This document shows positions 1 through 64,000 of a DNA stretch of 64,000 bases, one piece after another; within the stretch, counting starts at the first letter, position 1, and the number at the start of each line of letters is the position of its first letter. The DNA is from Squalus acanthias (Eukaryota), in NCBI GenBank assembly GCA_030390025.1, contig CM059429.1, positions 138,012,001-138,076,000 on the forward strand, in the 5' to 3' direction. A program made the position numbers and the translations under genes. The notes below the pieces were generated by a model that searched no databases, was not told the origin of the DNA, and saw nothing but the letters and a program-made list of their open reading frames with translations.

Positions 1-1761
1 GCTAGGTAGAGGTCGGTTCGCCAAACAACAACAGCACCACCCTTGTCAGCAGGTTTAATGACAATGTCGGGGTTGGATCGGAGAGAATGGAGTGCTGCAA
101 GTTCAGAGGGAGGTAGGTTGGAGTGAGTGAGGGGAGCAGAGAAATGGAGACGGCCAATGTCACGGCGGCAGTTAGCAATGAAAAGATCTAGAGAGGGTAA
201 GAGGCCAGAGGGAGGGGTCCAGGTGAACGAGAATTCTGAAAGCGGGAGAAAGGGTCAGCCGTGCAGGGGGAAGACTCCTGGCCAAAGAAGTGGGCACAGA
301 GACGAAGGCAGCGGAAAAAGAGCTCAGCATCGTGCCAAGCTCGAAATTCATTGAGGTGGGGGCGTAAGGGGATAAAGCTCAGGCCTTTGCTGAGGACTGA
401 TTGTTCGGGGTCAGAGAGGGGAAGGTCAGAGGGGATAGTGAAAATGCGGCAGGGGGTGAGATTGGGAGAAGGGGGGTCAGAGGAAAGTGAAGGGGAAGAA
501 GGTTCCGGAGGGGCGTTGGTGTTCAAGAGTTGATGAAGCTTGCGATCCTTGACATCGGAAAGGAAGAAGAAAAGGTTTTTGTTGAAGCGTCGGATGAGTC
601 TAAGGATGAAATGGAATTGTGGACCCGGACAGCTTTGAGATAGAGTGCGTCGGTGCTGCTGAAGAGAGAGGTCGAGAGTGTTCATGTGGCGCCGCATGGC
701 GTTGAGCGTGGATCTCAAGATGCGGCGAGAGCAGTAGTTCGAGGAACGATGAATATCTTGGAGATATTTGTAATCCTGGGTGGATCCGAAACACGAAGGG
801 TGGAAGTTTAGTTGGAATCCACGTGGGATAAGTCGGAACCGGAGACAGTTGCTGAGGAAAATTATGTGGCTGTGAAACCGAGTCTTGGCAGATACCTGAT
901 CAAACACGAGAAGGAAACTGAAAGCAATGAAGATGAACAAGGTTGAAGAGCCAAACGGAGATCCCGTCGAAGAGAAGAGCAGAACTTCTTCAAGGTGGGC
1001 ATTCCTAGAAGAGAGGTGGCAGTGAACCAAACACTAATACGATAGCAAAATACTGCGGATGCTGGAAAATTGAAACAACAACAGAAAACGCTGGAAAAAC
1101 TCAGCAGGCCAGGCAACATCCGTGGAGAGAGAAACAGAGTTAACGTTTCAGGTTGAAGACCCTTCGTCAGAACTGAGAAGAAAGCAGGAAATGAAACAGA
1201 TAAAAAAGCAAGGGGGAGGCTGGGGGGAGGAATAACTATGGTAAGTAGAGACATTAAGAGATGCTCAAGGCAAGACGAGATGGTAATGGGACAGGTTAAG
1301 AAACAAAAGGTGGTAGAAGTGTGAAGTGTGAAATGCTGGCAGAATGAGAGACAGCTGCCGTAGGGGGAGAGAGAGAAAAAACAGGGAAAAAGGCACGAAC
1401 CAAAAGGGTGGATAAAATGTGTGGTAGGGGCCGAGGTTATGATCTGAAATTGTTGAACTCGATATTGAGTCCGGAAGGCTGTAAAGTGCCTAATCGGAAG
1501 ATGAGGTGTTGTTCCTCGAGCTTACGCTGAGCTTCCGTGGAACAATGCACGAGGCCGAGGACGGTGAGGTCTGAGTGGGCGTGGAGAGGTGAATTAAAAT
1601 GACAAGCGACTGGAAGCTCAGGGTCACCCTTACGGACTGAATGGAGGTGTTCCGCAAAGCGGTCACCCAATCTGCGTTTGGTCTCCCCAATGTAGAGCGT
1701 TAAGCTCGAGGAACAGCACCTCATCTTCCGATTAGGCACTTTACAGCCTTCCGGACTCAAT
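1..1761 (-). mobile_element. Neptune-type Penelope-like element (family B), 5' portion with tandem and inverted pLTR
   Basis: Minus strand reads GIY-YIG C-terminus (YIGETKRRLGDRFAEH...FRLGTLQPSGLN), then pLTR with hammerhead, then ORF start 1030-188 continuing after a frameshift to [12 protein letters not shown] near base 30. 1697-1761 is an inverted copy of 1464-1527. Confidence 0.88.
1138..1174 (-). ncRNA. Minimal hammerhead ribozyme motif (family B)
   Basis: Minus strand AGUU-CUGACGA-A-GGGU-cuuca-ACCU-GAAA-CG-UU-AACU. Confidence 0.7.
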
Positions 1762-2572
1762 GGGGGGGAGAGAGAGAGAATATGGGGGGGGGGGATAGAG
1801 AGAGAATATGTGGGGAGAGAGAGAATATGGGGGGAGAGAGAGAATATGGGGGGGGGGAGAGAGAGAATATGGGGGGGAGAGAGAGAATATGGGGGGAGAG
1901 AGAGAGAATATGGGGGGGAGAGAGAGAGAATATGGGGGGAGAGAGAGAGAGAATATGGGGGGGAGAGAGAGAGAGAATATGGGGGGGAGAGAGAGAGAGA
2001 ATATGGGGGGGAGAGAGAGAGAGAATATGGGGGGGGAGAGAGAGAGAGAATATGGGGGGGGGGAGAGAGAGAGAGAATATGGGGGGGAGAGAGAGAGAGA
2101 ATATGGGGGGGGGGGAGAGACAGAGAGAATATGGGGGGGGTGAGACAGAGAGAATATGGGAGGGGGAGAGAGAATATGGGGGGGAGAGAGAGAGAGAGAG
2201 AGAATATGGGGGGGAGAGAGAGAGAGAGAATATGGGGGGGAGAGAGAGAGAGAATATGGGGGGGGAGAGAGAGAGAGAATATGGGGGGGGAGAGACAGAG
2301 AGAATATTGGGGGGGGCGAGACAGAGAGAATATGGGAGGGGGAGAGAGAATATGGGGGGGAGAGAGAGAGAGAGAGAGAATATGGGGGAGAGAGAGAATA
2401 TGTGAGAGAGAGAGAGAGAGAATATGGGGGAGAGAGAGAATATGGGGGAGAGAGAATATGGGGGGAGAGAGAGAGAGAGAGAATATGGGGGGAGAGAGAG
2501 AGAGACAGAATATGGGGAGAGAGAGAGAGAGAGAATATGGGGGGAGAGAGAATATGGGGGGGAGAGAGAGAA
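1762..2572. repeat. G/purine-rich minisatellite, unit ~(GA)nAATAT(G)5-10
   Basis: Tandem copies visible up to the gap. Confidence 0.95.
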
Positions 2573-3072
2573 NNNNNNNNNNNNNNNNNNNNNNNNNNNN
2601 NNNNNNNNNNNNNNNNNNNNNNNNNNNNNNNNNNNNNNNNNNNNNNNNNNNNNNNNNNNNNNNNNNNNNNNNNNNNNNNNNNNNNNNNNNNNNNNNNNNN
2701 NNNNNNNNNNNNNNNNNNNNNNNNNNNNNNNNNNNNNNNNNNNNNNNNNNNNNNNNNNNNNNNNNNNNNNNNNNNNNNNNNNNNNNNNNNNNNNNNNNNN
2801 NNNNNNNNNNNNNNNNNNNNNNNNNNNNNNNNNNNNNNNNNNNNNNNNNNNNNNNNNNNNNNNNNNNNNNNNNNNNNNNNNNNNNNNNNNNNNNNNNNNN
2901 NNNNNNNNNNNNNNNNNNNNNNNNNNNNNNNNNNNNNNNNNNNNNNNNNNNNNNNNNNNNNNNNNNNNNNNNNNNNNNNNNNNNNNNNNNNNNNNNNNNN
3001 NNNNNNNNNNNNNNNNNNNNNNNNNNNNNNNNNNNNNNNNNNNNNNNNNNNNNNNNNNNNNNNNNNNNNNNN
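2573..3072. other. Assembly gap (500 N)
   Basis: Run of N. Confidence 1.
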
Positions 3073-3470
3073 TCCCCCCCCCACACAGACTGTTCATTCC
3101 CCCCCCACACAGACTGTTCATTCCCCCCCCACACAGACTGTTCATTCCCCCCCCACACAGACTGTTCATTCCCCCCCCCACAGACTGTTCATTCCCCCCC
3201 CACACAGACTGTTCATTCCCCCCCCACACAGACTGTTCATTCCCCCCCCACACAGACTGTTCATTCCCCCCCCACACAGACTGTTCATTCCCCCCCCACA
3301 CAGACTGTTCATTCCCCCCCCACACAGACTGTTCATTCCCCCCCCACACAGACTGTTCATTCCCCCCCCCACACAGACTGTTCATTCCCCCCCCACACAG
3401 ACTGTTCATTCCCCCCCCACACAGACTGTTCATTCCCCCCCCCCCCACACACACACACAAACTGTTCACT
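3073..3470. repeat. ~23-bp minisatellite (CCCCCCCACACAGACTGTTCATT)n
   Basis: About 16 near-identical tandem units, decaying into (CA)n. Confidence 0.95.
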
Positions 3471-3599
3471 CTCTTCCGCCACTGACTGCTGACATTGTTT
3501 CTCACACACACTCCCTCCCTTTCTAGATAGCCACTCCCTGTATTAATAAACATCCAGCACTTAGATTCTTCATTGACACTGGTACAGGTTCGATTCATA

Positions 3600-4033: not shown

Positions 4034-7000
4034 GTGAGTAATCAGCTGATTTATTATTCTTTATTTGCTGTGTGGACTAGGTGCTGCTAGCTTCTCTGTT
4101 GCAAAGCGTCACACCTAGCTCTAGCTAAATCTATTCCAGAATTACTGGCTCTAAAAGCCGCACCTTATTCAGAATTGCTCAACCAGAACTGATTAACCTG
4201 CAGCAATTGTAAATCAGCAAGTAGTAGCAGCAGAAAAGTGAAAGCCTCCTGTCATAGTTATTGTTTTATGCTTCAGAAGGAAAGGCTTGCATTTATATTG
4301 CACTTTTCATGACCTCAGGACGTCCCAAAGCACTTTACATTGAATGAAGTACTTTTGAAGTGTAGTACCTGTTGTACTGTCGGAAATGCACATAGCAAGA
4401 TCCCATAAACAGCGATGTGATAATGACCAGGGAATCAGTTTCAGTGATGTTGATTGAGGCATAAATATGGGCCAGGACACCAGGGAGAACTCCCTTGCTC
4501 TGCTGCGAAATAGTGCCACGAGGTCCTTTACTTCCACCTGAGAGAGCGCAGACATCTCATCCACCTCCGACAGTGCAGCGCTCTCTCAGAGTGTCAAATC
4601 TCTGGAGAGGGTTTTGAACCCACAACCTTCTGACTCAGAGGGGAGAGTGCTACCAACTGAGCCATTGGGAGAGACTATTTGGACCATCTTGTTCCAGTCG
4701 AGGCACCTTTCACATTCCAGAGCAAGTTGTGTAATAGATAATAGTGACCGTGCGGCACAGTGGCTACACAATCAAACATGTGCAATTGTAAATAAAAACA
4801 GAAAATGCTGGAAAATACTCAGCAGGTCAGGCTGCATCTGTGGAGAGAGAAACAAAGTTAACATTTCAGGTCGATGACCTTTCATTAAAAGTAGGTCGAT
4901 GACCTTTTGTCAATAATGCAATTATAATCTTTGACCTGAGATTTACCTGAGTCTGTACCCTGGCACACTAGAAAATCAGGCAGGTTCCCTTATATTAAGT
5001 ACTCCAACCTGCCTATTTGTTCCCATATTCAAGATGCCCAGCTGATCCAGTGCACCTTGGTACCAGACCCAGGAAAACCTTCCCTGAAAACTGGAGCAAA
5101 ACCTTCTGAAGTAAAAGCACCTTTAGACACGCTTGTTGCTTACCGTCATGTCATACATATCCAGCATAGCTCTTACTTACTGATTACTTACGAATTCGGC
5201 CTCGTTGAACCGGCAGTGAACCTACCATTGCAATCATTAACTGTCTTGTTTGAATATTACAGCACATTGGGTCACAAAGTGGACAGCAGCTGTCTGTCTG
5301 AACCAAAACTGGAAAAAGTTCTTACATAACATGAATATAATGAATATATGGAGAGTGATTTCAAGGCTGTGATAAGATCTTGGGGGTACTAAAGTTTCCG
5401 GTTTGCAGTTTGAAATCATTTAAATCCATCGATGCTCTGCGCCAGGAGAGCGAAGTTATAAAATTTACCATGTTATTAGCAAAAATATGTTATTTATTGA
5501 AGTAAGTTACTGATTGATCAAAGCAATGGTTGAAAGTAATTTTAAGGTAGTTATCTACAGACACGTTCAAAGAACTGGATATATTGTAATCTGATCATAG
5601 GCAGAGACAGTATCCCCGTCTTTACGGTGAGGCGGGGAGGGAGCGGCAGAGGCCAAAGGTGGCTGAAGAACCCCGCAGAGGCCCAGCCAAATTTAACGGC
5701 AGGAACTTGTTTTTTTTTCTTCCATTTCCCGCCCGGCAGCCGGCCAAATTGACAGGCTGACCTGGGGGGTGTGGGGGTTGGCGTGATCACGGGAGGGGAG
5801 CAGGCTGCAGATTGGGGCTTGGGGGGTGGGGTGGGGTGGTGAGGACCACGATGGCAGCAGGCGTGTAAGCGTCGGGTTGGAGTCGTGTTTCATAAGAACA
5901 TAAGAAATAGGAGCAGGAGTTGGCCATTTGGCCCTTCAAGCCTGCTCCGCTATTCAGTTAGATCATGGCTGATCTTCTACCTCATCTCCACTTTCCTGCA
6001 CTATCCCCATATCCCTTGATTCCCTTAGTATCCAAAAATCTATCGATCTCTGTCTTGAATATAATCAAAGACTGAGCATCCACAGCCCTCTGAGGTAGAG
6101 AATTCCAAAGATTCACCACCCTCTGAGTGAAGAAATTTCTCCTCATCTCAGTCCTAAATGGCTGACCCCTTATTCTGAGACTGTGACCCCTGGTTCTAGA
6201 CTCCCCAGCCAGGGGAAACATCCTCCCTGCATCTACCCTGTCAAGCCCTGTAAGAATGTTGTATGTTTCAATGAGATCACCTCTCATTCTTCTAAACTCT
6301 AGAGAATATAGGCCTAATCTACTCAATCTCTCCTCATAGGACAATCCCCCCCATCCCAGGAACCAGTCTGGTGAACCTTCGTTGCACTCCCTCTGTGGCA
6401 AGCCCCAAACTGCCTCAATCTATCAGTCTCAGACACTGATAATCAGCAATTCAATTAATGCTGATTTACTGTGGCATCCCTGAACTGCCTTGATAACCTC
6501 TGTTATTCAAATTGCTAGGTACTTAATTGGCTGTGAAGCTCTTTGGGATGTCCTGAGGTTATGAAAGGTGCTATATAAATTCAAGTTCTTTATTTCTTCC
6601 TTTCTTTTACACATATGGATGCATTTCATTATAGCTCAGTTTGTAGCATTCTCTCCTCTGAATGATGGTTGTGGTTTCAAGCTCCAAATCTTCAACACGT
6701 AATCTAAACTGATACTTCAGTAAAGATGATGTGGAGATGCCGGTGTTGGACTGGGGTGGACAAATGTGAGAAGTCGCACAACACCAGGTTATAGTGCTGG
6801 TGTTGTGCAACTTCACCTGATGAAGGAGCAGCGCTCCGAAAGCTTGTGATTTCAAATAAAACTGTTGGACTATAACCTGGTGTTGTGCGACTTCTCACAT
6901 TCAGTAAAGAAAGAAGAGAGTGCTGCATTATTGGAGGTGCTGTCTATTGGCTGAGACATTAAACTGAGGATCTGTCTACCTGTTCTACTGGTTCAGATGG

Positions 7001-19000: not shown

Positions 19001-22000
19001 CATCAAATACATTTTTTTTAAATTACATATTTAAAATGAATTAAAATGCCATTTAATTAAATATTTAAAACAAAAGTTTTATTTTTTGAAAAATAAATTT
19101 ACATGTTTTAAAGGGGCTAAAAATAAACTTACCTTATTGCACAGGTTTTTTAATGTATAAATGATTGAAAAAAATGTATTTTTATGTTTTTTTAAACTCT
19201 TACGCTGGTAAAAGCAGGCGTAAGAATTTCACGGGCATTCGCTGGGCAGAAGTTGGGCAAATAGCCCAACTCTCTGCCCGCGGAGGCCCTTTTCCCGGGG
19301 ATGTGTTGGATTTGTCAAGAAGATTCTTGACAGATCGCAAGTTCTGGGTTTTCGCGCATGCGCTTCACATGCGAAAACCCGGAACTTGCACGGCCCTTAC
19401 GGGCGCATACGCACCTCATACCGTAGGGGCCGCAAATTATGGGCCCATATGGCCTATTTCTTGTCATTAACACCATAATTAAGGTGAGACAGTAGGGTGT
19501 ATAGTATTGCTATGGAAAAGGGAGGCAGACTCAAAATGTAAATTCTCCCAAGAGAGCAGGGGCCATTAATTATATTCTCTGCCCAGCAAATTTAAAAATG
19601 AAAAAATATATATTTTGTGTTCAGCCACCCCAGAGGAAGCTGGCCTCAATTCACTGTTTTCCACCATCCCTCAGAGGCTGGATCCCTGATGCAGATGGAA
19701 ATGCACTGGGAATTTGCCCAAATTATTTAAATAAGGCTGACCCCAGAAAATCAGGGCTATGCATGGTCTAAGGGGACTGGTGGTAATCACTCCCCAGTGA
19801 CATTGTGGTGGGATGCCACCCAGCCAGAAAATTCTGCCTATTAGGTGTCCAAGAGAGGGAAAAAGATATTCAATTCAAATACAAGCATCTTCTGGGTATT
19901 GTTGGTAGATATTTTGTTTGAATAGCAGCCTTTTTGAGTTTAAGAGATACATATTTAAATTTACAAAAGCAAAATACTGTGGATGCTAGAAATCTGAAAT
20001 AAAAACAGGAAAATGCTGAAAATACTCAGCAGGTCAGGCAAATTTTGAAAAGTATTTCTCAGCCGGTTTTGTTCAAATTGGGTAATATGTCTGAAGGCAT
20101 CAGAAAGTGGTTGATTGGTCAGAGAGGCTCCATGGACAGTTTTAAGCAACCACATTGTAAAGATTAATAGTCGAGAACCTCAGTTAACATTGCACTTTAG
20201 AGCGGCAGATTTAAGTGTTTGTTATTTAATGTCTTCCAATTGATGGAATCCATGGTTCAATTGAACCAAGTCAAATTTTAGCTTTTGATTATTCAAATAC
20301 AAACAAAAAATGGCCATAAATAAGGATTTACATGTGTGCAGTTATATTGTGTGATCTTGTGGGGACCAATTACAGCCACCATAAACAGTTATTTTGAAGA
20401 CCCCCTCATTGGTGCGTTGACTTATATATTTGTATTATTTATATATGTTTAAATGTATTCTAAACTTTCCTATTCTTCCCTGCTCTCAGCTGAACTGCTC
20501 CTTTGGATGACAAGTATTGAATGGTTTGCTGTGACTCTGACTAATAGTGGTACTGACAGGAGATCATAAGAAACAATCATGTACTAGACAGGTTAATTAC
20601 AGTGAAAACGGTCTCAGATGTATAAACTGCAGCTCTTTTGTTGAAGTTTGAAACACTGACCTTTGACGAACGTCAGTATTATGTTAATGCACCGAGTGAA
20701 TCACTGCTATTAACCTTCAGCAGACTTCCACTGCTGATGTGATCAGTTTCATCCTCAGTGGTACTCTCTGGTTTACACTAAAGTGAGTGTATTAAAATTT
20801 AAAAGTAGCATTTATGCTCCAGGCTACACCATTTAAAGGCAAGTGTAATAAGTACACTTGTTGACTCGCTTTGGATAACTGCCAATACTGAGCTGGTGAC
20901 AGTCTCTGAATTTTGATAAGGAGAGATTACAGAAATTCACAATGCTTTAATTTTACATCCATTTGCTTCCATCCCTTTTTGATCCCTTAATCTGCCTCCA
21001 AGTTCCTTTCCCCCTCCCTAATCATAAGGGCATGCTGCTCTGTGCCCTCGGTATCTCTAGTCAAATAGGGATGAGCATTTGGATTCATTTAAATTTCGTA
21101 GTAGACTGGAACTATCTGAAATTTAACTGAGATTTTAAAAAGAAGGCAAGCAAGTATGTTGGGAGCACCTCTCTGGACCAGCAGGTAACTTGCACATACC
21201 AGGAACTGTCTCCAGCATTCCCTCCACTAAAGTAGATTCAGTATGGTGTGTTGCCGTTTATTAACAGAGGGTTGAGTTTAAGAACCGTGAGGTTATGCTG
21301 CAACTGTACAGGACCTTGGTGAGACCACATTTGGAATATTGTGTGCAGTTCTGGTCACCTCACTATAGGAAGGACGTGGAAGCATTGGAAAGAGTGCAAA
21401 GGAGATTTACCAGGATGCTGCCTGGTTTGGGGGGGAGGTCTTATGAGGAAAGATTGAGGGAGTTGGGGCTTTTCTCTTTAGAGCGGAGGAGGATGAGAGG
21501 CGACTTAGTAGAGGTTTATAAGATGATGAGGGGGATAGATAGAGTGGATGTTCAGAGACTATTTCCTCGGGTAGAGGCAGCTGTTACAAGGGGGCATAAC
21601 TAGAAGGTGCATGGGGGGAGATATAGAAGGGATGTCCGAGGTAGATTCTTTACTCAGAGAGTGGTTGGGGTGTGGAATGGACTGCCTGCTGTGATAGTGG
21701 AGTCGGACACTTTAGGAACTTTCAAGCGGTTATTGGATAAGCACATGGAGCACACCAGAGTGATAGGGAGTGGGATAGCTTGATCTTGGTCTCGGACAAT
21801 GCTCGGCACAACATCGAGGGCCGAAGGGCCTGTACTGTGCTGTACTGTTCTATGTTCTATGTATGCTGTAAGCCATATTTACATATAGTTTGCACTTGAC
21901 CCTGTTTTCTCCACACATCAAAGTTGGCATCAAAATGGTGGTCTACCACCAGACTAAAATTATGCCAAATTTGCTCACTTTGTTTTTGGCTAAACGCAAT

Positions 22001-28000: not shown

Positions 28001-31000
28001 AAAGTTTTAGAATTATCTAAACAGCCTCTTCTGTCTTCAGACCAGCTGCATATCTGCTTCTGCCTAGAGGGGAAACCATGGTGGCGGTGTTCAAATGGCC
28101 TTTGAATTGGTCAAAAGGGCACTGTTCTGGTCCAGTGAACCCAGACCATACGGTTTCTAGAATATGTGCTAAGGGAACTGACATCACAATACCTTGAACA
28201 ATTTTTGTCCCCTGTGGGAACACCTGTACTATGTCTTACACTGATCTGTATTGAATAGTCTCAGTGGAGTTGGCGATATCCATTAATTTCTCTTTTTAAT
28301 GCTTACAGAAAGCAGCTTTGAAGTTACCGCAATAACCCGGACACCAACCGTGAGATACTATGGTACATTTGAACTCCAGTGTTTCATTAAACCTTTATCC
28401 CTTACCCATGTGCCGGCATCTGTATCCTGGAAATTCCAACCAGCCCATTCTAATGACAGCTACCACCTTGTTACTTTCACCCATGACACTGCGATTGAGT
28501 GGGGGGACAAGGTGGAGAACTTCAAAGGAAAAATGATAGTAGTGAAAACGGCGTCCAATACTGTCCGGTTGAGTGTCTCCAGAGCCAGCAAACTGGAAGC
28601 TGGGAAATTTCTATGTACCGCAGAATTATGGAGAAGACATCATCCAAACCAATGGGTCATGAAAGCCAGAGCAACATCAAACATCCTGGAAGTGAAGGTT
28701 AGACCCCCAGGTAAGTTAACGGAAGGGGTGCTTTTAGAATTTACAGGATCAAAGGTGCATTAAAGTGGCACCCAGGCCATCGTGTGCAGTATATGAGATA
28801 TTAACCTGCCTTCTAAAAAAAAAAGATAGAAATTGAAAATGAAATAATGGCCCCAGTTGGTAAGTGCACTGTGCAGTATGGAAGCAAGCTATGCAGACCA
28901 TAAGGTCCCAATTCCAATTCCGAGTCTGTGCAGTAGGGGAGAAGGGTCTCAGTGGCCCTGGGATAGGGAGGGGGAAAAATCTGCCAGGGTATCTGCTTGT
29001 GATTGTTATCCAGTGAATCTACTGGAAACGTGTATGGACATCAGATGAAGATAGGATCAAGCTCAGCTGTGGTGTCCTCAACTGAAAAATAGCCTGCTAC
29101 CACTCATTGTCTAGGCTCACACATGAAGAGTGGTGCCTTCGGCATGGTACTGGAAAGCCACAGACATCTGTTGAGCCATATCCCACCAGGAGTCCGCACC
29201 TTTGTGAGAGAAGGGGAGAAAATTGAAGCAGAAGAAAGCAAAATATGAATCTGTGAAAAACAAAATAAATTAACTAACTATAAGTAATTACAATGAAATA
29301 GGAAGGTGAGCTATAAATAGATAACAAAACAAACAAGAGGCAATAAAAAGACTATTCCATCATTAGGACGAATCAATCTGTTGCAGTAAGTTGTGGTTGT
29401 TCACATGTAACTAACTATGAATAGGTGCTTGTGAAAATTAGGTTATTTGTATCTGTCGGAGATACTTTAATCCAAAATGTTATTTAAGGGGCTGTATTAT
29501 GTCATTAAGTCCACACTGTTCAGAGCTGCACAAATAGTATTTTTTACCTCTCACCACAATGTCAACATATTGCTAAAAATGCAGTTTTGATGCTTTTGGG
29601 GTGAAATTGAGTATTTTAAAATGTATTGGTGCTCTGTACATGTTCTGCCACTTTACACAGCCCTGATCCTGACATTACAACAAAATGTAGTTAAAGTTGG
29701 CCAGGTCATATTAATGTTGAAATATCTGCAATTTGTGTTTTGGAGCTGCTCTACCTTCATCCGTACCTTCAGAAAATAAAATTGTCATCAATAGAGTAAT
29801 GGGAGAATTAATCAAGAGTAAGGTAACCTGTTTTCTCAACTGATGGATGTATAGAAGTAAGACAGATATAGGGAAGAATTGGATAAAAATTAAGGCGTAA
29901 ATTTACAATAAAAACATCACGCTTGCAAAGGAGGTGAAAGTATGCTGCAAGATCACTAGTGTCATGGGCTCAACTGTGTAACACACTCATCAGTTCTGGT
30001 AGGTCACTCTCCTAAATCATAGATGAGCATATACAACTAAATAGTTAGATATTGACTGATCTGTGTGATGCTTCACCTTGAACCTAAATACTGTAGTACA
30101 AAGAAATACAATGAAATTATTCTGATATACTGTCTTTTCTACTTATGTAGCAAGTCTCTTGAAGCTCACGAAGCAAGTTAAAACCGTACAGAAAAGGATC
30201 AATGACATCACTGAACTTGAATGTAGAATTTCAGCTCAAACTCAAAATGATTCTCAATTCGCAGTCACGTGGCTCTTTACTAAGACACAGGGACCAAATG
30301 TGAAAGGGGAAAATCTTCTGAGCACTGATCGCAATAATATTGTCCAGTACTATGGAGAATTGCTTACCGATACGAAGAAGAAGATGAAATTCCAGGATGA
30401 AAAGACCTCTAATGATATGTACAAGCTGATTATACAGAAAACTGATGTGAGTGACAGCGGAAGTTACTATTGTCATGTAATGGAGTGGCTTTTGGATCCC
30501 AACAACATCTGGTATAAAGTGGGGGAGAATACGTCGGCAATAACAACTGTTCAAGTGCATACGGCAGGTAAACAAGTTTCCTAAATATCTCTCAAAAATT
30601 GCAGGACTGGAACAAATGACAATTTGTTTATTTATTACTATGAGCGGTTTCTTTTCCTGCAACTAAGAGTGATTTGCACTGGAGTGCAAATAATGTGTGG
30701 AACTAGCAGTAGCACAGGCACAATGACCTCTGTGGAGAAAGAGATTGTGATGTGGAGATGCCGGCGTTGGACTGGGGTGGACAAAAATGAGAAGTCGCAC
30801 AACACCAGGTTATAGTCCAACAGATTTATTTAAAATTACAAGCTTTCGGAGCTGTCGCCCCTTCCTCAGGTAGAGTAGCTGTGAGAGAATCTCCCAGAAT
30901 TCACAATATAAACACAGAAAAAATGTATTCAAATCTTTCCCTACATCAAAGACACACTAAGAGCACAGCCAAGACAATGAGATGTGTCCCAGGGGGTCCA

Positions 31001-34000
31001 ACGTGTCAAAACACCTGCTGGCTGCATATCCTCTGCAGTTGAGTTTGGTTCTTGTGTTAGTTTTTTTTTAAAAGGAAAAGCTGGAAAGACCGGCCATGAT
31101 GTCAAGTCATGTTCTGTATCGTGACATGAACCCGATATCGCGATTGAGGCCATCCTCATGAGTGCGGAACTTGGCTATCAGTTTCTGCTCTATGATTTTG
31201 CGCTGTCGTGTATCCCGAAGGCCGCCTTGGAGAACGCTTACCCGCAGATCCGAGGCTGAATGCCCCTGACTGCTGAAGTGTTCCCCGACTGGGAGGCAAC
31301 CCTCCTGCCTGGCGATTGTTGCGCGGTGTCCGTTCATACGTTGTCTCAGTGTCTGCATGGTCTCGCCGATGTACCATGCTCTGGGGCATCCTTTACTGCA
31401 ACGTATCAGGTAGCCAACGTTGGCCGAGTCACATGACTATGTACCATGTACCTGGTGGGTAGTGTCCTCACGTGTGATGATGGTATCTGTGTCCATGATC
31501 TGGCATGTCTTGCAGAGGTTGCCGTGGCAGGGTTGTGTGGTGTCGTGGTTGCTGTTCTCCTGAAAGATGGGTAATCTGCTGCGAACGATGGTACTTTTGA
31601 GGTTAGGCGGCTGCTTGAAGGCGAGTAGTGGAGGCGTGGGGATGGCCTTAGCAAGGTGTTCGTCGTCATCGATGACATGTTGAAGGCTGCGAAGAACATG
31701 GCGTAGTTTTTCCGCTCCGGGGAAGTACTGGACGACGTAGGGTACTCTGTTGGTTGTGTCCCGTGTTCGTCTTCTGAGGAGGTCTATGCGGTTTTTCGCT
31801 GTGGCCCGTCGGAACTGTCGATCGACGAGTCGAGCGTCATATCCCGTTCTTACGAGGGCGTCTTTCAGTGTCCGTAGGTGTCCATCGCGTTCCTCCTCGT
31901 CTGAGCAGATCCTGTGTATTCGCAGGGCTTGTCCTTAGGGGATGGCTTCTTTAACGTGGTTAGGGTGGAAGCTGGAGAAGTGGAGCATCGTGAGGTTGTC
32001 TGTGGGCTTGCAGTAGAGTGAAGTGCTGAGGCGTCCGTCTTTGATGGAGATTCGTGTGTCCAAGAATGAAACCGATTCTGAGGAGTAGTCCATGGTGAGT
32101 TTGATGGTGGGATGGAACCTGTTGATGCTATCGTGTAGTCCTTTCAGTGATCCTTCGCCGTGGGTCCAAAGGAAGAAGATGTCGTCGATGTATCTGGTGT
32201 ACAGCGTTGGTTGGAGGTCCTGTGCAGCGAAGAAGTCTTGCTCGAACTTGTGCATGAAGATGTTGGCGTATTGGGTGCGAATTTGGTCCCCATGGCTGTT
32301 CCGTGTGTTTGGGTAAAAAAGTGGTTGTCGAAGGTGAAGACATTGTGGTCAAGGATGAAGCGGATGAGTTGTAGGATGGCGTCCGGAGATTGGCTGTTGT
32401 TGGTGTTGAGTACTGAGGCTGTCGCAGCGATGCCGTCATTGTGGGGGATATTGGTGTAGAGTGCCGATACGTCCATCGTGACGAGGAGTGTTCCTGGTTC
32501 AACTGGTCCATGGGTGCTGAGTTTCTGCAAGAAGTCTGTAGTGTCACGACAGAAGCTGGGGGTTCCCTGTACGATGGGTTTCAGGATGCCCTCGACGTAC
32601 CCAGAGAGGTTCTCACACAGGGTTCCGTTGCCTGATACGATAGGACGTCCGGGTGTGTTGGCTTTGTGTATCTTTGGGAGGCAGTAAAAGTCTCCTACGC
32701 GGGGAGTACGTGGGATGAGAGCACGTAGGATGTTTTGAAGGTCTGGATCGAAGGTCTTGATCAGTCTATTGAGTTGGCGGGTGTGTTCTTTGGTCGGATC
32801 TGCGGGTAGCTGTCTGTAGTGTTCCTGGTTGTCCAGTTGTCGGTATGCTTCTTTGCAATAGTCCATTCTGTTCTGTATGACGATGGCTCCTCCTTTGTCC
32901 GCTGGTTTGATGACGATGTTGCGGTTGGTCTTGAGAGCGTGGATGGCGTTGCGTTGTGCTCGGGTGACATTCTGGACTGTCTTGTGAGTACGGCTGATGA
33001 ATCTGGCGTTGATGCATTTCCTGACAGCTTGAGCATACATGTCAAGCTTAGGGCAGCGACCCTCCGGAGGGGTCAATTTGACTCTTTCTTCCTCGGTTGT
33101 AGCACTGCGGTTCCCTCTGTCTGCTGTTCCGGATCATTGATTGTCTCATTAGGAATGTTGCTGACATCTTGGGATTTGTGGTAGTATTCCCAGATCCTCA
33201 TTCTCCTGATGAATTCCTCTGTGTCCGCCGCGAGACCGATGGGGTCCATTTTGGTGGTGGGGCAGAACTTGAGCCCTAGGGCGAGAACTTCGATTTCGTC
33301 TGGTTGAAGGGTGTGGTCCGACAGGTTGACGATGGACTTCCCTGTGGTTGCAACCGTGGTACCGGGGGAGGCTTGGTTGCAGCTGGTGGTTACGCCGAGT
33401 TTCTCAAGCTTCCTGTTCTTGATGCGCATGTAGGCAGCGTAGTTCCGTTGCCTCGTCTGTTTGGCGGTGTCTCGTAGCTGGTCTGCTGTGTCCTGAGCAC
33501 AGGCTGAGAGCATGGACTCTATCTTGGTTTCGAGGTTGCGACGTCTGCTGTAGAGCTGGTGTACGAGATGGTTGAGGAGTGTGCGAGAGGTACGACGGCA
33601 AAGTCTCTCAGCGTAGTCTGTGTTGTATGTCGACTTGAGTGGGTTCGTGATCTGTAGTCCTTTCGGAATCTTGTCTGCTTTCTTGCATCTCTGCAGGTAC
33701 TTGATGTCTGTGTCAATATGCGCGATCTTCTTGGCGATTCTCTCCACTTTGAGCCGGCAGTTTGCGGTGTCAAGAGAGGTCATGATGTGGAGATGCCGGC
33801 GTTGGACTGGGGTGGACAAAAATGAGAAGTCGCACAGCACCAGGTTATAGTCCAACAGATTTATTTAAAATTACAAGGTTTCGGAGCTGTCGCCCCTTCC
33901 TCAGGTAGAGTAGCATAGCTTCTAAAGGAGCCATTTTTTGACTTTGCGCTCCTGACTGGAGCTGCTTGGCAGTGGCCTATGCAGTGCATGATTTTTAGGC

Positions 34001-46000: not shown

Positions 46001-49000
46001 CCAGGGGAAACATCTTCCCTGCATCTGGTCTGTCTAGCCCTGTCAGAATTTTATACGTTTCAATGAGATCCCCTCTCATTCTTCTAAACTTTAGTGAATA
46101 CAGGCCTAGTCGACCCAATCTCTCCTCATCCCAGGAATCAGTCTTGTGAACCTTCGCTGCACTCCCTCTATGGCAAGTATGTCCTTTCTTAGGTAAGGAG
46201 ACCAAAACTGCACACAGTACTCCAGGTGTGGTCTCACCAAGGCCCTGTATAACTGTAGTAAGACATCCTTGCTCCTGTAGTAAGAACTTCCTCATATCAG
46301 TCCTAAATTCAACTTTAACTAGTTCCTGTGGTCCTTGTCTTATTTACGCAATTTAATTTAATGTAATTTTCCAGATTGACTTTTTCTACACCATTTCTAA
46401 TCTTATACGATTTGTAGTGTTATGTACATGGGTAGGGCCAACGCCAAACATGTATACATCAGGCAGGGTTTAAGGCTGTTGAGCAGGAGGAAGATCTAGG
46501 TGTTATTGTACATAAATCTCTGAAGGGCAGTAGATGGAGGTCATGGCTACCATGACAGTAAGGGACAGGCTTGATGGGCCAGCTGGTCTTTTCCTGCCCT
46601 TTGATTTTGTATGTCTCTACCTCTCAGGCTGGCTTCCATGGAGACAGAAAAGCCCATGTTTCTCCAGTCTTTCTCATAATCAGACCTCCAAGAACAGGGA
46701 TCAGCCTTGTGGCAGTTTGAACTACCTCCATTGTCTCCCTTATTCCTCAGTCATTAAAATTGGATGTACTACTGAAAGAGCATTGTACAGTTTGATCATG
46801 ACTTCCTCTTTCTTGTATTCTACTGTGTTTGTGATTATAGTCCTGTTGACTTATTGATTGCTGCTCTGCATTGGTTGGAACTGTTAAGTGTTGAGCCTAT
46901 TAAGACTCCTTGGTCTTTTTCAACTTCATCTGTTTATTGCAGAAACTGCATTGAGCTGCTCAGCAACTTCTTACTGGAGCTTGCTGAGGAGAGTGCCCCT
47001 CAAATCCAGAAATGGGACACCTCCCTCCACATCACCTTCAGGGTTCTCTAAGAAAAAGGAACTGTTTTCCCTTTCCCCTTGCTGATTCTTGACTCATTTT
47101 ACCACAACTGTCAGCAAGACCACATGAAATTGGAAAACGGGAAGTGCAGGAACAGCTTTAAGTAGCTGCCCCAGCACTTTTCCTCCTCTGTGCAGGAAGT
47201 TAACCTCTCCGTTCCCAGCGTGCAACTTGAACAAAATCATGATTTGGATGTGAAAAAGTATTATATAAACGGAACACATACTGTGGATGCTGGAAATCTG
47301 AAATAACAACAGAATATGCTGGAAACACTCAGCAGGTCAGGCAGCATCGAGGAGAGAGAAACAGAGTCAACGATTCGGGTCGAGGACGTTCTGACGAAGG
47401 GTCCTCGACCCAAAACGTAACTCTGTTTCTCTCTCCTCGATGCTGCCTGACCTCCTATATAAATGGAAGTTCTTTCATCCTCACAGTATGAAGGACTGCA
47501 ATATGGAATATGTGAGCAACCTTAATATTTAACGATAGATTAAAGTGCAGAGCATGTTGCCTAACATGAATGTTTAATAGTGAACTAGAATATAGAATGT
47601 ATTATATAACTTGAATACTGAACCAAAGTACAGAACTTTTTGTATAAATTGAATGTTTAATGGTGAACTAGAATACAAAATGTGCTGTATAATCAAAATA
47701 CTTATTTGGGAATTGGAAACCGAATGTTTCCCATTTAGGACGAGGAAGATCTTGATGTGTGTCTTGTAACTTCAACATTTAAAAATTGGCAAGTCTCCTT
47801 CACTTTTATAATAAATTCTGTATTCTACACTTTCCCATTGAGTAGCCTGTAGTCTTGATATAACTCAAGTTATATTCTGATTGGTTTTGCTGTACAATCG
47901 AAAATCTTGGAATTGCACCTCAAAGTTAACCAGTTAGAAAAAGTTGCTTGAAGGTCCAACGTCTACTCCAGATTGTATGGTGCAGCAAGTGATTAAGAAG
48001 GCCAATGGAATGTTGGCTTTCATTGCTAGGGGGATAGAATATAAAAATAGGGAGGTATTGCTTCAGTTGTACAAGGTATTGATGAGACCGCACCTGGAAT
48101 ACTGCATACAGTTTTGGTGTCCATACTTAAGAAAAGACATACTTGCTCTCGAGTCAGTACAAAGAAGGTTCACTCGGTTAATCCCGGCGATGAGGGGATG
48201 GACATATGAGGAGAGGTTGGGTAGATTGGGACTCTACTCATTGGAGTTCAGAAGAATGAGAGGCGATCTTATTGAAACATATAAGATTGTGAAGGGGTTG
48301 GATCGGGTGGATGCGGGGAGGATATTCCCGATAATGGGTGAAACTAGAACTAGGGGGCATAGTCTTAGAATAAGGGGCTGCTCTTTCAAAACTGAGATGA
48401 GGAGGAACTATTTCACTCAGAGGATGGTAGGTCCATGGAATATGCTGCCCCAAAAAGCTGTAGAAGCTACATCATTACATAAATTTAAAACAGAAATAGA
48501 CAGTTTCCTAGAAGTAAAGGGAATTAAGGGTTACGGGGAGCGGGCAGGAATTTGGACACGAGTCTAGGTTCGGATCGGTCATGGCCCTGTGGGTAGCGTA
48601 GCGGGCCCAGGGGCCGTGTAGCCTGATCCTGCTCCTATTTCGTGTGTCCAATTCTGTTAGATTCAGGAGATGGTTCTGTGATAGTAGATTGGCGGTTAGG
48701 ATCAGATCAGCCATGATCTTATTGAATGGCGGAGCAGGCTCGAGGGGCCAATTGGCCTACTCCTGCTCCAATTTCTTATGTTCTTATGTGATTACGTTTA
48801 CATTGTTTCAAAGAACTTTTATCATTTCTAACTTTTTTTGTCTTTTTTTCCTAGTTGCTACCCTACACTCGAAGGCCTGTGCATCACCGTCTCTCTTCTA
48901 CTTCATATTTATCTACCCGTTTATAATCTTCCTAGCTCTTGTCATTGTTGCACTGTATTTTCACAAGAGGCCAAAAAAACCACAGAAATCTGCTAATGAA

Positions 49001-49054: not shown

Positions 49055-49302
49055 GAAGCAAATGTAATATAACATTTTGTATTTCATTATTTTTGCAACT
49101 CTCTATTGTTACTATAGGAACTGTGTCATAAATAGCAGGAAAATAGCACCTGTGGTTAAGGGAAAGTTCACACAGGTGCCTAACCAAAAGAGATATTGAA
49201 GCAAAAAATGCAATCTGAGATCCTTCAATCATCATGCACATTGGTTATCTTTTTTTTGGAAAATTAGAAATGGAAACCCTGGCCTAACAAGACATTTGTA
49301 AA

Positions 49303-49376
49303 ATAACAACAGAAAACGCTGGAAAAACTCAACAGGCCAGGCAGCATCCGTGGAGAGAGAAACAGAGTTAACGTTT
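49303..49376 (-). mobile_element. Family B pLTR micro-insertion in the presumed 3' UTR
   Basis: 15-bp direct repeat CAAGACATTTGTAAA at 49288-49302 and 49377-49391. Confidence 0.85.
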
Positions 49377-51191
49377 CAAGACATTTGTAAATATGTCTTC
49401 ACTGGTTACACAGCTTCTCTCCCAGTTCAAACAACTCAATTGTTTTTTTTAGCTTCCTTCATTGCCAACATTTAATATTTGTGAACCTTCTTCCTCTTGT
49501 ACCTTTCAGTTCCTAAATTCAAACCTAATATATACAACGAACTTTTCACAAATTATTTCACTTTTCAATCCTTCAATCCTTTCTGTGTATTGAAATCGTG
49601 CAGCCATTGCCCCAAATCCAGAGCACAAGGGAGCCAAAAATAACAAAATAATCTAAGAGTATTGGGTTGTAAAACTCTAATGGGCTGAGCATTTGGATAG
49701 CAATATAGTGTTATAATAAAATTTGTGCTCAGAGTTAGACTTGTCAAAAAAGCTGAACTAAGTTGCTAACTCAGTAGAGAACAAGCTGGTGGATGTTATT
49801 CTGTATCTACACAGTGCATGGTCAGACCACACCATGTGTACTGTGGCCAGTTTTGTTACCGGGATACAAGGCAATCATTCAAACCCTGGAGGTGGTGCAG
49901 AGAAGAACCACAAAGCTGATCCCTAGTGTCAGACTATATTAACATTATTGTTCAGCCTTGAAAGGAGATGGCTGAAAGGGGACCTCACTGAAGCATGTAA
50001 GACAGTAAAAAGTATGGAAAAGGTACAATCAAAGCACCTTATCAAGCCCAGGCACTGGGGAGAAGAAAAATAAATTCAAACTGGTGAATGACAAATTTAG
50101 GACTGAACACAGGAAGTTCATCATGCAAAGAGTGGTCAGCATTTGGAATGAAATCTTGCATAGAGTGATGTTAGTTAAATGCTGGGGCAGGGAGGTCTAG
50201 GTGGATGATTGGAGATGGGAAAAATAGCCTTCACCATTTGTATTTATCTTGTGACTTAGACAGATAGATGATTATGTTGGCAGATAAAAGAGAGGCAATT
50301 TTTAAAATTTGTTTCTGAAAGATCACATCAGGACATGACAGCAGAGACAGGATTTTTTTCAGTGTGCATTGCGCTGAAGGCCTTTACATGTGTTGTGGTG
50401 AAGGGCGGGCTGCTCAGTGACTCCTGGGAATCGTAGTCCAGTTGTGTGGCAAAATTTCTGATACCTGAGATAAGCTTTGTTAAGACATTATTACGTGTGA
50501 CATTCAGGGAGTATCTGTGTGCAGCTGGGGTCAGGATGGTTATGCGCTCTGATGGATTTTATCTAGCCATGCATGAGGAAGCAGGTATTTTTAAAATAAA
50601 TTTCATTTTAGGCGTATATAGTGGAGTGAAACCAGCAGGGCCATTCAAAGGACTTTGACTTTTTTTTCAAGGTTTTGATTGGTTATATATTTGGTTATAT
50701 TGATTCATTGCTTTTTAATGGATGGATTTTTTTTTCTAAAGAGATAGTAACTTTTATTTTAGAGATATATAAGGCTGATTTTCCAGCCCACTCCTTTTCA
50801 ACATGCAAAGAGCGAGAAATAGGGAAGGGAGGTATTTTGCCAGATTTTAATGAAAGCAAATGATATCTTGTGTAATTTCCATCCATTCCATGGGCATAAA
50901 GGGAAGCTGCATGTGCAGGGAAATTCTCGGAGGTTTTTTTTTGAAGAAGTTTTTTATTTTCATTGTTTTGGTAGCTTTTTAGTGTTTTTACCTGCTTTTT
51001 TGGCATTAGAACACATAGGGAATATTCATGTAGATACACAAACAGTCAAATATTGTGTGCAGACTCACCAGACACTTGTCTATAGTTGAACCACTTTGAA
51101 GAGTTCAGTGGAACAAGAAGATTGAAAAAGAAGGGAGATAGGAAAAGTGCTCTTAGAAACAAACTTACGCTGCAGCTCAGGAAAAGAAAGT

Positions 51192-58248: not shown

Positions 58249-58441
58249 AAATGAGAAGTCGCACAACACCAGGTTATAGTCCAACAGTTTTATTTAAAAT
58301 TACGAGCTTTCGGAGCTCTGCTCCTTCTTCAGGTACAGGTACTAAGTGAGGGAATACAAATCGATTACACAGTATATATATACAGAGAGCAATGTGTCTG
58401 CAGAGATACAATCTGTTAGGGAGGCATTACATCAAAGACTT
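58249..58441 (-). mobile_element. Family A PLE 3'-end insertion with intact hammerhead motif (58301-58335)
   Basis: UAC-CUGAAGA-A-GGAGC-aga-GCUCC-GAAA-GC-UC-GUA; TSD CTTCTTTAA at 58240-58248 and 58442-58450; host is an L2-like tail. Confidence 0.82.
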
Positions 58442-60796: not shown

Positions 60797-60797
60797 G

Positions 60798-61453
60798 TGT
60801 AAGATTTAGATCACAGGCCACACACAGATTACCCAAAGGGTCTTAGGAATTGTAAAGCATTTTATTAAAGAGCTACAGTTTAAAGCATAATCAGATATTA
60901 CTACATGCGATTGAAATAGATACAGTAGACATACAACCCATGACAGATGAGGGTGATCTACGGCCCTGGAATTGAATGAAACAACTGGATGGACGGTTGT
61001 TGGAGGTGTTGGGCCGTAGCAACCTCGGGGAAGCCTTCGCCCCTAACTGCCTGATTTCCTCTCTCGGTCGTCTATATTTATATTTCTTTTGGTGAGCTGG
61101 TGATTACCTGGTGTCAATCATTTGTTCCCCATCCTATTGTCCAATTATGAAGCGGGAAGGCATCCCTCACCGTCCCTTTCTGCATGGCTGGCGAGACCTC
61201 CCTCTTATCTTTCTGAGGAATGTTTTGTTATGTTTCTTTAAGGAAATTTATGACTTTTCGGCTCCATTCTGTCTATTATCCCACCACCCTGTGTTGTTTT
61301 GCATTTTACAATTCCCTTATCACTTCTATTTGTCTTTTGGTGCTTGTTATTCGACCTTGCTGGCATTTCTGTCATCTGTTCCTGGCTGCATGTTGTCAGT
61401 CTCTGTTCTAAGAATTAAAACCCCATCTTTGAATCTAACAGCTATTTCTTACA
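60798..61453 (-). mobile_element. 3' LTR of an ERV-like element, with adjacent internal sequence to ~62540
   Basis: Inverted ends TGTAAGA/TCTTACA. On the minus strand: polypurine tract AAAGAAGGGAAT (61454-61465) directly before TG, TATA-like at ~61071-61085, AATAAA at ~60861-60866. Confidence 0.72.
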
Positions 61454-62540
61454 ATTCCCTTCTTTGAGAAGGAAATATCCTTATTGACTTCTCACAATCG
61501 GCTCTTGACTAATCTAGTTAGTTCTTATTGCTCTCTCAACTTGGGCGTTAGTTAGGAGGGAGTCTCAGAAATGAAGGTTTCCCCCTTCCTTACAGTCCAT
61601 TCCTGTGAGGGGAAGGAGCAACCTCTGACCCCTTACTCAAATTCAATTCACTGTTCCGGTGTTCCAATTCTGCCCCGCCTGGGGTATCCTCTGTTTCTTC
61701 TATCTTTCCTGATCTTACCCCACCTGGGGTCTCCTCTACGATGCTTCGGATCTTCTCTTTCGGTGTGCTCAATTAATTTGTTGGTGCTGGTTAGTTGTAG
61801 GCATGAGTACCCAATTGGCTTGTGCATCAAAGTCTTACTACATAGGGTATACATATATCAAATACACTATCATTACAAGTTGGAGAACTACCAGAGCATG
61901 TGAAATAATACGAATCTAAGAGTGTGCTGATGTATTAAGCCCAATTTCCCACCAGTGTGAGTTGTCCTCTATGCTGTCAATTTCAATATCTATTCTCGGG
62001 TTGTCTTGCTCCAAAACATAAGCATGCTTTAGGGAGGAGTTCAGTCACATCACAAGCTCACTGAAACCCTCAGACAACAGGGGAATGTCATATCCAAATT
62101 GTGCCACATAATTGTGCAGCTCATACTTAAGTATCTCATTTACTGTCAGTTTCACTTGAGCATAGGTTTTGATATTGAGTAAAATGTGTTGGTTGATGGG
62201 ACAGGTCCTGCTAGACCCGTAAAGCGGTAGTAGTGACACAGGAGGCACCACCAAAACCACCTCATTACTGGATTTGTATTGGTTTTTCCCACGCTCTGTT
62301 ACCTACAAACACAATTATTACAGTTACAAGTTATAATTCAGTCTTACAATCATTTCAAGCGACACTACAGTTTAACATCTAATCAACAAATCATGGACTT
62401 AAAAGATTCTCCAATTTTCTTTTACTCGTATCCATCTTGTGGATAATTCTTGCTAAACATGATTTCTCCTTAGCCCTCAATCGTCCCAATCCAAATTCTT
62501 CAACTTAAATTTCAATCCCTCCAACAGGTACCAATGTGTT

Positions 62541-64000
62541 TAAAATAACAGAAAATGCTGGAAATACTCAGCAGGCCAGGCAGCATCCGTGGAGAGAGAA
62601 ACAGAGTTAACGTTTCAGGTCTGGGACCCTTCATCAGAACCGGAAAAAGCTGGAGATGTAACAGATATTAAGCAGGTGCAGAGACGGGGTGGGGGTTAGG
62701 AGGGGAGGAAGGAATTGAAAGAACATACTGTGCTTATGTAAGAGGCAGGAAAGATAAAATATTGCAAATGGGAATGGCAAAATCATACAGCATGAAAAAT
62801 GGGGGATGGGATTATTGTCTGAAATTGTTGAACTCGATGTTGAGTCCGGAAGGCTGTAAAGTGCCTAATCGAAAGATGAGGTGCTGTTCCTCTAGCTTAC
62901 GTTGAGCTTCATTGGAACAATGTAATAGGCCGAGGACAGAGAGATCAGAGTGGGAGTGAAGCGGAGAATTAAAGTGACAGGCGACCGGAAGCTCAGGGTC
63001 ACCCTTACGGACTGAACGGAGGTATTCCGCAAAGCAGTCACCCAATCTGCGTTTGGTCTCCCCAATGTAGAAGAGACCGCATCGTGAGCAGCGAATACAG
63101 TATATTAAATTGCAAGAAGTACAAGTAAATCGCTGTTTCACCTGGAAGGGGTGTTTGGGGCCCTGGACAGTGGGAAGGGAGGAGGTAAAAGGGCATGTGT
63201 TGCATCTCCTGCGCTTGCACGGGAAGGTGCCAGGCGAAGGAGAAGGGCTGTTAGGGGTGATTGAGGAGTGGACCAGGGTGTCGCGGAGGGAGCGGTCCCT
63301 TCGGAATGCTGAAAGGGGAGGTGAGGGGAAGATGTGTTTGGTGGTGGGATCACGTTGGAGGTGGCGGAAATGGCGGAGGATTATCCGTTGAATGTGGAGG
63401 CTGGTGGGGTGAAAGGTGAGGACAAGGGGAACCCTATCGTGGTTCTGGGAGGGAGGGAAGGGGTGAGAGCAGAAGTGCGGGAAATGGAACGGACACGGTC
63501 AAGGGCCGTGTCAACCACAGTAGAGGGGAATCCTCGGTTGAGGAAAAAGGAAGACATGTCGGAAGCACTGGTATGGAAGGTGGCATCGTCAGAACAGACG
63601 CGGCGGAGACGGAGAAACTGGGAGAATGGAATAGAGTCCTTACAGGAAGCGGGGTGGGAGGAAGTGTAGTCCAGGTAGCTGTGGGAGTCAGTGGGCTTGT
63701 AGTGGATGTTTGTCGAAAGCCGATCACCAGAAATGGAGACGGAGAAGTCAAGGAAGGGAAGGGAAGAGTCGGAGATAGACCATGTGAAGGTGAGGGAAGG
63801 GTGGAAATTGGAAGTAAAGTGAATGAACTTATCTAGTTCAGGTCGAGAGCAGGAAACGGCACCGATACAGTCATCGATGTACCGGAAAAAGAGGTGAGGG
63901 AGGGGACCTGAGTAGGACTGGAACAAAGAATGTTCCACATATCCCATGAACAGGCAGGCATAGCTAGGGCCCATGCGGGTTCCCATAGCAACACCTTTAA
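62541..64000 (-). mobile_element. Neptune-type Penelope-like element (family B), 3' portion, runs off the window
   Basis: AMGTRMGPSYA..RYIDDC..LPFLD..KPTD; FPCKRRRCNTC linker; NLIYCIRCSRCGLFYIGETKRRL GIY-YIG; pLTR 62541-62645. Confidence 0.93.
62606..62640 (-). ncRNA. Minimal hammerhead ribozyme motif (family B)
   Basis: GUU-CUGAUGA-A-GGGUC-cca-GACCU-GAAA-CG-UU-AAC. Confidence 0.75.

Follow-up and report, generated by a model that had tools for sequence, protein, structure and literature searches.

Two families of hammerhead ribozyme motif, A and B, are found together in the 64-kb stretch of Squalus acanthias DNA analyzed here (the window), and an earlier note on this DNA proposed that their palindromes, AGCU in A and ACGU in B, serve as a self-recognition code between co-resident Penelope-like elements (PLEs). 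This raises the question of what family B is, and whether its predicted failure to pair with A is a code at all. The answer that we favor with good confidence is that B is the minimal hammerhead of an abundant Neptune-type PLE, likely cutting only as a strand-swapped pair with its own second copy, and that its predicted inability to pair with A probably arose as a side effect of divergence and does not represent a selected code.

Both intact B motifs lie on the minus strand, at 1138..1174 and 62605..62641, and contain the full core CUGANGA...GAAA with an extra A after A9, U17, and the palindrome ACGU at positions 15.1-16.1 in place of helix III, much as the earlier note had described them (at 1138-1174 and 62606-62640). 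It was also right that N7 is C or U, with C in the first copy (core 1146-1170, predicted cut 1142/1141) and U in the second (core 62613-62637, predicted cut 62609/62608). Helix I, previously given as the 3-bp GUU/AAC, is short but has 4 bp, AGUU/AACU in the 1138 copy and GGUU/AACU in the other. Helix II, of 4-5 bp in B, follows one unpaired base; it has 5 bp and the loop CCA in the second copy, and in the 1138 copy a single G>A change at a CpG leaves 4 bp instead of 5, so that the loop first read as 'cuuca' is most likely a decayed UUC. The other two reported loops, CCA and CUC, were found.

The same features characterize the minimal hammerheads (min-HHRs) that Cervera and De la Pena (2014) described in the pLTRs of metazoan PLEs. 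As set out in that paper (PMC4209133), B resembles them in its type I core (CUGANGA...GAAA, U16.1 and H17), the extra base after A9, the short helix I, the palindromic 15.2-16.2 without helix III, the presence of the motif in both pLTRs, the predominance of dispersed single copies, and the occurrence of several families per genome. Family B is thus confirmed as a second PLE hammerhead family, of minimal type I and dimer-type design, and it is of a kind already published there. One difference concerns the helix II pair closest to the core, which is canonical G10.1-C11.1 in the min-HHR consensus and is kept in B mostly as G-U (81 of 92 copies, with 6 A-U, 2 G-C and 3 other); G-U also occurs in rows of Fig. 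S3 of PMC4209133, for example Xenopus 1.

The two decayed copies reported earlier, at 4857-4890 and 47388-47421, were both borne out. The first belongs to a pLTR end at 4784..4890 (minus strand, loop AUC), whose hammerhead has two core changes and CG>TG in the palindrome. The second belongs to a head-to-head pair of pLTR ends at 47278..47456 (loop CUC; plus strand 47388-47456, partial minus-strand copy 47387-47278), and its plus copy has GAAA>AAAA and has lost one U. An Rfam search of the window gave no hammerhead family and eight weak matches; a mir-14 match among the candidates proved to be this head-to-head pair. Some B sequences had been overlooked in the earlier note, namely a 5'-truncated end at 49301..49378 (minus strand), which begins at GAAA without CUGANGA and is flanked by short direct repeats, tails alone at 19962..20041 (minus strand, without hammerhead) and 27230-27301, and a partner copy beyond the window start.

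At the head of a full-length element stands the 1138 copy; that partner, a second B copy on the same strand, is found 3,164 nt further downstream, past the edge of the window. The upstream pLTR (1075..1697, minus strand, 623 bp) consists of the endonuclease 3' end, 3' UTR, hammerhead and tail. Next to it is a small piece of the endonuclease region in inverted orientation (1696..1761, plus strand), the typical PLE 5' inversion, beyond which simple repeats are followed by an assembly gap (2573-3072). The 5' part of the ORF, in a frameshifted copy with a likely ATG at 1002-1000, occupies 1..1002 on the minus strand and continues outside the window to the downstream pLTR (locus L077, 1413-2021, with its hammerhead at 1478-1505). 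The two pLTRs are 95.3% identical and surround one RT-EN ORF, in which the order toward the downstream pLTR is RT, Cys linker and GIY-YIG, followed by the second hammerhead. A second element (62544..64000, minus strand, continuing past the window end) likewise shows the RT end, a CX4CX2C linker, GIY-YIG (ORF 62812-63498), 3' UTR, hammerhead, and a tail that ends about 65 nt beyond the predicted cut site. In 29 of the 33 endonuclease ends inspected the hammerhead stands immediately 3' of the GIY-YIG end, the remainder being three at locus edges and one interrupted.

Pfam analysis of longer B copies gave RT (E 8e-6) and GIY-YIG (E 5e-4), both below the curated cut-offs, and no family in six short or broken ORF pieces. 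A CX2-5CxxC linker is visible, as are CCHH-type residues, with a Cys pair and His around GIY-YIG. The single ORF with RT and then a C-terminal GIY-YIG, as in EN+ PLEs, together with this linker, the CCHH-type residues, the pLTRs, the inverted 5' copy, and a tail of 30-40 bp that is present at some ends, matches the Neptune clade of Craig et al. 2021 (PMC8557442). The B hammerhead therefore resides in the pLTR of a Neptune-type PLE (RT plus GIY-YIG), where Neptune, suggested by these features, is preferred to Nematis, which has the linker too, only because vertebrates reportedly hold Neptune and Poseidon.

Family A is carried by a similar element at 30750..33915 (minus strand), a broken ORF with RT, a CX4CX2C linker and GIY-YIG. 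Its hammerheads lie at 30844-30869 (AGCU) and 33879-33904 (decayed, ACCU); further AGCU copies are at 56163-56188 and 58308-58332 (minus strand), and the copy used for our dimer comparison is at 6811..6851 (plus strand). The assignment of AGCU to family A thus holds at 6817, 30844, 56163 and 58308, but not at 33879. The description of B as sequence-independent of A is correct for the RNA motif only, since both carriers are related Neptune-type PLEs, whose RTs show 38% identity; blastn with A and B probes gave no cross-match at E<0.01. A relative of the B protein (42% identity) on a metagenome contig, L093, also has ACGU, in a single case. Of the 11 metagenome loci with relatives, two have a complete minimal hammerhead following the ORF, one with ACGU and the other with AGCU, which is too small a number for inheritance to be traced.

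We also searched the whole genome. Strict B matches numbered 18,264, against none for a reversed control pattern, so that the motif is not a product of chance; strict A matches numbered 65,952 (control 0). These numbers exceed the roughly 4,000-9,000 copies given for coelacanth and Xenopus in PMC4209133. ACGU was found in 14,802 of the 18,264 B matches (81%), and among 92 fetched copies the palindrome center was CG in 83 and CA or TG in the other nine; most genomic B copies are dead and are losing the CpG of ACGU through deamination. Across the B subfamilies the palindrome, helix I and all catalytic core positions including H17 are constant, N7 and loop II vary, and subfamilies whose 3' UTRs form separate clusters all retain ACGU. 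Five descriptors, which required the exact core, excluded some helix II sequences and missed longer palindromes, revealed no third abundant hammerhead family among the matches listed, and all 16 descriptor matches in 600 kb were A or B. B sequence is also present in four presumed-RNA contig sets, though such contigs carry no information on ends, strand or level; no RNA data set was listed among the sequencing runs that contain B.

We then considered whether A and B can form mixed dimers. ACGU and AGCU form two of four pairs, in agreement with the claim that they are unable to cross-pair, and because of this A/B dimers are predicted to fail. By folding energies they are about 10-13 kcal/mol worse than homodimers, and the heterodimer is predicted to lie 13-16.5 kcal/mol above the open monomers, compared with 0.3-5.7 for within-family pairs. 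However, the palindrome does not discriminate alone. Helix I, which is exchanged too in the strand-swapped dimer, forms 0-1 of four pairs across families; its predicted share of the incompatibility is as large as that of the palindrome, and it separates even A subfamilies with a common AGCU by about 5 kcal/mol.

If a code had been selected, co-resident PLE lineages would have been driven to different palindromes and helices I because cross-dimers would mis-cut or jam each other's RNA. The high predicted energy of the heterodimer agrees with this, as do the difference between the two dominant lineages of a genome in which no third was seen among the matches listed, and the lack of any A-B palindrome swap among the matches listed (0/100 B rows with GC, 0/100 A rows with CG). 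Nevertheless, only four palindromes are possible, and ACGU is the default state among animals, being the commonest one (29 of the 41 motifs published). Two families taken at random differ 48% of the time. In a small hand-tallied set, within-species family pairs had a common palindrome in 8 of 15 cases against a permutation mean of 7.8, and a common palindrome was present in seven of eight species with at least two minimal families; co-resident families in this set do not avoid sharing, and the B subfamilies have the entire key in common. Moreover, a code is unnecessary because the natural partner of B is the other pLTR of the same element. We therefore consider a selected code unlikely, and the palindrome-based form proposed earlier is not supported. 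Differing palindromes within one genome are also recorded in PMC4209133 for S. mansoni (AGCU/ACGU) and Nematostella (AUAU/ACGU).

As we picture the process, a read-through transcript would join both pLTR hammerheads, and each core would borrow two parts from its partner, U16.1-H17 and the 3' strand of helix I, to give a dimer fold of a 4-bp helix III and two 4-bp helices I. Cutting after GUU would then yield unit-length RNA, though probably with low efficiency. Such self-pairing would work with any palindrome, so that each lineage may simply inherit one of the four, ACGU being the commonest. Since B would self-pair in cis with its own second copy, the predicted non-pairing with A probably arose incidentally as the families diverged.

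How often B cuts is a separate matter. Small PLE hammerheads are reported to cleave as dimers (Lunse, Weinberg and Breaker, RNA Biol, cited in the review PMC6765202), but published PLE dimers cut poorly in vitro, and only one of nine Xenopus retrozyme dimers cut. In our data, 28 of 29 insertions extend 37-242 nt beyond the 3' cut site, with ends in two classes at about +70 and +105, which indicates that the RNA template had either escaped cutting at this site or been re-ligated. It might be argued that the motif is retained mainly for a non-cleavage role, such as RNA end pairing, template recognition or an RT pause, and rarely or never cuts. These uncut 3' hammerheads fit that idea, as does the lack of a clear cut-site footprint, 5' ends at the B cut site numbering about 8 of 100 against 3-4 per neighboring position, by eye among the matches listed. 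The active B/B fold is also predicted, in a model without tertiary energy, to lie 11-15 kcal/mol above the minimum-energy dimer, the conserved G10.1-C11.1 is replaced by G-U in most copies, and Naiad PLEs spread without hammerheads (PMC8557442). On the other hand, the catalytic core and H17 remain constant while N7 and loop II vary across subfamilies, as expected for catalysis, and related motifs do cleave as dimers in vitro, if weakly. A mainly non-cleavage role thus seems improbable to us, and we retain the reading of B as a ribozyme that likely cuts only with its own second copy.

Other transposons are also found at the predicted cut site. In 1,407 B copies of the genome, a PIF/Harbinger-type transposon interrupts the motif precisely there, at the GUU triplet. 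All eight split loci with both transposon ends show a 3-bp TSD and TIRs, and two of three ORFs tested encode a DDE_Tnp_4 transposase (E 1e-34 and 3e-34). The 3-bp duplication, the short TIRs beginning with GG and the transposase are as in PIF/Harbinger (PHIS, PMC4482050); unlike the usual pattern, the duplication is GTT instead of TWA, and several families recur at one ribozyme triplet. Harbinger target preference explains the hotspot in part; the enrichment at GUU is roughly 600-fold compared with about 45-fold predicted by a crude target profile, and a self-pairing RNA motif giving a near-symmetric DNA target is possibly involved. A second good target site lies 8 nt downstream in the B tail. 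In 600 kb of unselected DNA none of the 15 B tails, and none of the 11 A tails, belonged to a split copy, so the split share of B is a few percent at most. That A and B form a natural orthogonal ribozyme pair keyed by helix I and palindrome, with keys sorted by costly cross-dimers and with B active enough for hosts to retain Harbinger insertions at the scissile triplet beyond target preference, is an idea that we consider improbable. No account of the B-triplet hotspot was found among the matches listed in the Harbinger target literature.

We found no literature combining hammerhead, heterodimer, Penelope and ribozyme, and no discussion of cross-family specificity in the available part of PMC4209133, where the Fig. 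S3 list includes no cartilaginous fish. The known class now includes a shark-type genome in which two min-HHR lineages have grown very large, and A and B provide a clean natural pair for the study of dimer specificity. The split copies present a case in which one transposon class repeatedly disables the ribozyme of another at a single triplet. Finally, what PLE hammerheads do is still described as unclear (PMC8557442), and their possible role is constrained by the uncut 3' ends reported here.

Both intact motifs of hammerhead family B reported in the earlier note were recovered on the minus strand, at 1138-1174 (core 1146-1170) and 62605-62641 (core 62613-62637), each with the palindrome ACGU in place of helix III and with U17; hammerhead position numbering is used throughout. 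The helix I described for B is present, at a length of 4 bp rather than 3. Helix II of the copy at 1138 is short by one pair, most likely lost through CpG decay. Decayed B copies were likewise present as described at 4857-4890 (minus) and 47388-47421 (plus), the latter lying head-to-head with a partial minus copy. AGCU, the palindrome attributed to family A, occurs in four of its five window copies; the one at 33879 has ACCU. Probes for A and B gave no cross-match, and the Rfam search returned no family matching the B motif at the threshold used. We also observed an inverted partner copy of its own tail immediately upstream of the family A end at 6756-6901.

A GIY-YIG ORF ends upstream of each intact B motif. 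The copy at 1138 sits in the upstream pseudo-LTR (pLTR) of a full-length Penelope-like element (PLE) that extends past the window start; the pLTR repeats are 623 bp long with 95.3% identity, the second B motif of the element, in the same orientation, follows 3,164 nt further downstream, and the element also has an inverted 5' fragment and a broken RT-EN ORF. Beside the B element's 5' end, long purine/pyrimidine simple repeats at 1761-3500 flank a 500-base assembly gap. Longer B copies gave weak Pfam matches to RT and GIY-YIG, and the best-matching named relatives are from sharks and rays (65-72% identity). Both A and B have a CX4CX2C linker, a type that marks Neptune/Nematis PLEs according to the available text of PMC8557442, and the accessible part of a preprint (10.64898/2026.07.22.740005) gives Neptune and Poseidon as the PLEs reported from vertebrates. 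A and B are distinct yet related lineages: the identity between their RTs is 38% across 273 aa. Minimal hammerheads also follow PLE ORFs in two metagenome contigs, L093 (2724-2749; ACGU, A17) and L097 (2097-2127; AGCU, C17).

Strict patterns gave 18,264 genome-wide matches for B, 14,802 of them with ACGU, and 65,952 for A, with AGCU in 99 of 100 among the matches listed (controls 0). Five descriptors for other hammerhead families returned decayed A/B copies or near-background counts, and 600 kb of unselected DNA yielded 16 descriptor matches, eight to A and eight to B. The 15 B tails in this 600 kb suggest, roughly, that B has ~90,000 copies in all, the decayed ones counted too. In a selected set of 92 B cores, the core, helix I and palindrome are shared, and N7 and loop II vary; nine palindromes have middle letters other than CG, all CA or TG. 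By 3' UTR, 73 of these cores fall into four clusters and 19 are singletons. Several Ig V-set-like domains, one of them confirmed (E 2e-9), are encoded by plus-strand exons of a gene in the window (13385-49054) that may be EWI/IGSF3-like. The A element at 30.7-33.9 kb runs antisense to this gene, as do the B tails at 20.0 and 27.3 kb.

A genome search found 2,551 B tails without a core, and a transposon end was seen by eye in ~57 of 100 among the matches listed. Several PIF/Harbinger-type families interrupt at least 1,407 B copies, precisely at the GUU cleavage triplet; the matching left junction occurs 1,407 times genome-wide (control 0). At all eight loci picked for showing both junctions, the insert measures 1.8-7.1 kb and has short TIRs, and the GTT triplet is duplicated (seven GTT/GTT, one GTT/ATT); a ninth locus, with a doubled triplet and no insert, resembles an excision footprint. 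Smaller inserts (0.75-0.85 kb) are also present, and two inserts carry a DDE_Tnp_4 transposase. Harbinger-type termini occur within the window as well, at 7205, 14438, 27403, 34326-34950, 40772 and 41739-42405. The 3-bp duplication is consistent with PIF/Harbinger-group elements as covered in the available text of PMC4482050. In ~8 of ~57 transposon-split rows among the matches listed, the right-hand duplication ends in G, not T. Harbinger elements habitually target TA-rich sites. A target profile built from 48 other ends placed the B triplet among the best 0.29% of sites (5.5 bits) and the A triplet among the best 11%; a B site 8 nt downstream of the triplet scored as well as the triplet. Enrichment at the B triplet was ~600-fold by rough extrapolation from 32 ends in 600 kb, versus ~45-fold from the profile, a gap that may reflect the crudeness of the profile. 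None of the 15 unselected B tails in 600 kb was Harbinger-split. Split copies seem older than whole ones, because they show more CpG decay. In other listed matches, including G000:C1:67221814 and 67221865, the core is cleanly absent between 5' flank and tail, and some of these copies adjoin short repeats.

In the double-hammerhead model, as given in the available text of PMC4209133, two palindromes pair into one helix III. Because of this geometry, each core would take its partner's H17 and the 3' strand of its partner's helix I. A within-family dimer would form 4 + 4 + 4 pairs, and an A/B dimer two helix III pairs and 0-1 helix I pairs. By nearest-neighbour energies, relative to two open monomers, the active fold lies at +0.3 to +0.9 kcal/mol for A/A with matching helix I, +3.3 for B/B, +5.4 to +5.7 for A subfamilies with different helix I, and +13.2 to +16.5 for A/B. 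The earlier proposal that the two palindromes cannot cross-pair thus holds in prediction, and A/B orthogonality is predicted because these pair counts and energies are worse than those within families. The palindrome is not the sole source of this predicted orthogonality; helix I would contribute too.

Several results argue against efficient B cleavage. The active B/B fold is predicted to lie 11-15 kcal/mol above the minimum-energy dimer; 28 of 29 endonuclease-anchored B copies extend 37-242 nt beyond the predicted cut site, the remaining one ending at -4; and 5' ends showed no clear enrichment at that site. The 3' ends form two groups, at ~+70 and ~+105 nt from the predicted cut site (L034-L052, L079-L086), both stopping before a likely start codon at ~+140. 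Several short B copies (L022, L029, L030, L075, L076) have their first base no more than a few positions ahead of the core, a hint that RNA synthesis may begin, or the RT stop, at this point.

It had also been proposed that the palindromes form a self-recognition code between co-resident families. In its favour, the only two abundant lineages found in this genome do have different palindromes, and no swaps occur among the 200 A and B matches listed; however, a difference between just two lineages amounts to a coin toss. In the available text of Cervera and De la Pena (PMC4209133), which offers a precedent for differing palindromes in one genome, 41 minimal motifs comprise 29 CG, 5 GC, 5 UA, 1 AU and 1 CA (Fig. 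S3, tallied by hand from PDF text, with 15 of 56 rows excluded for a longer helix III). Two random families from this set differ 48% of the time, and 8 of 15 within-species pairs share a palindrome against a permutation mean of 7.8, in a small set uncorrected for descent. Moreover, the partner copy lies in cis, so a code is unnecessary. The idea was not found in literature searches, whose coverage lacked the text of the key dimer paper. The self-recognition code is therefore without support; A/B orthogonality is a prediction, and the B motif itself is genuine and of an already known kind.
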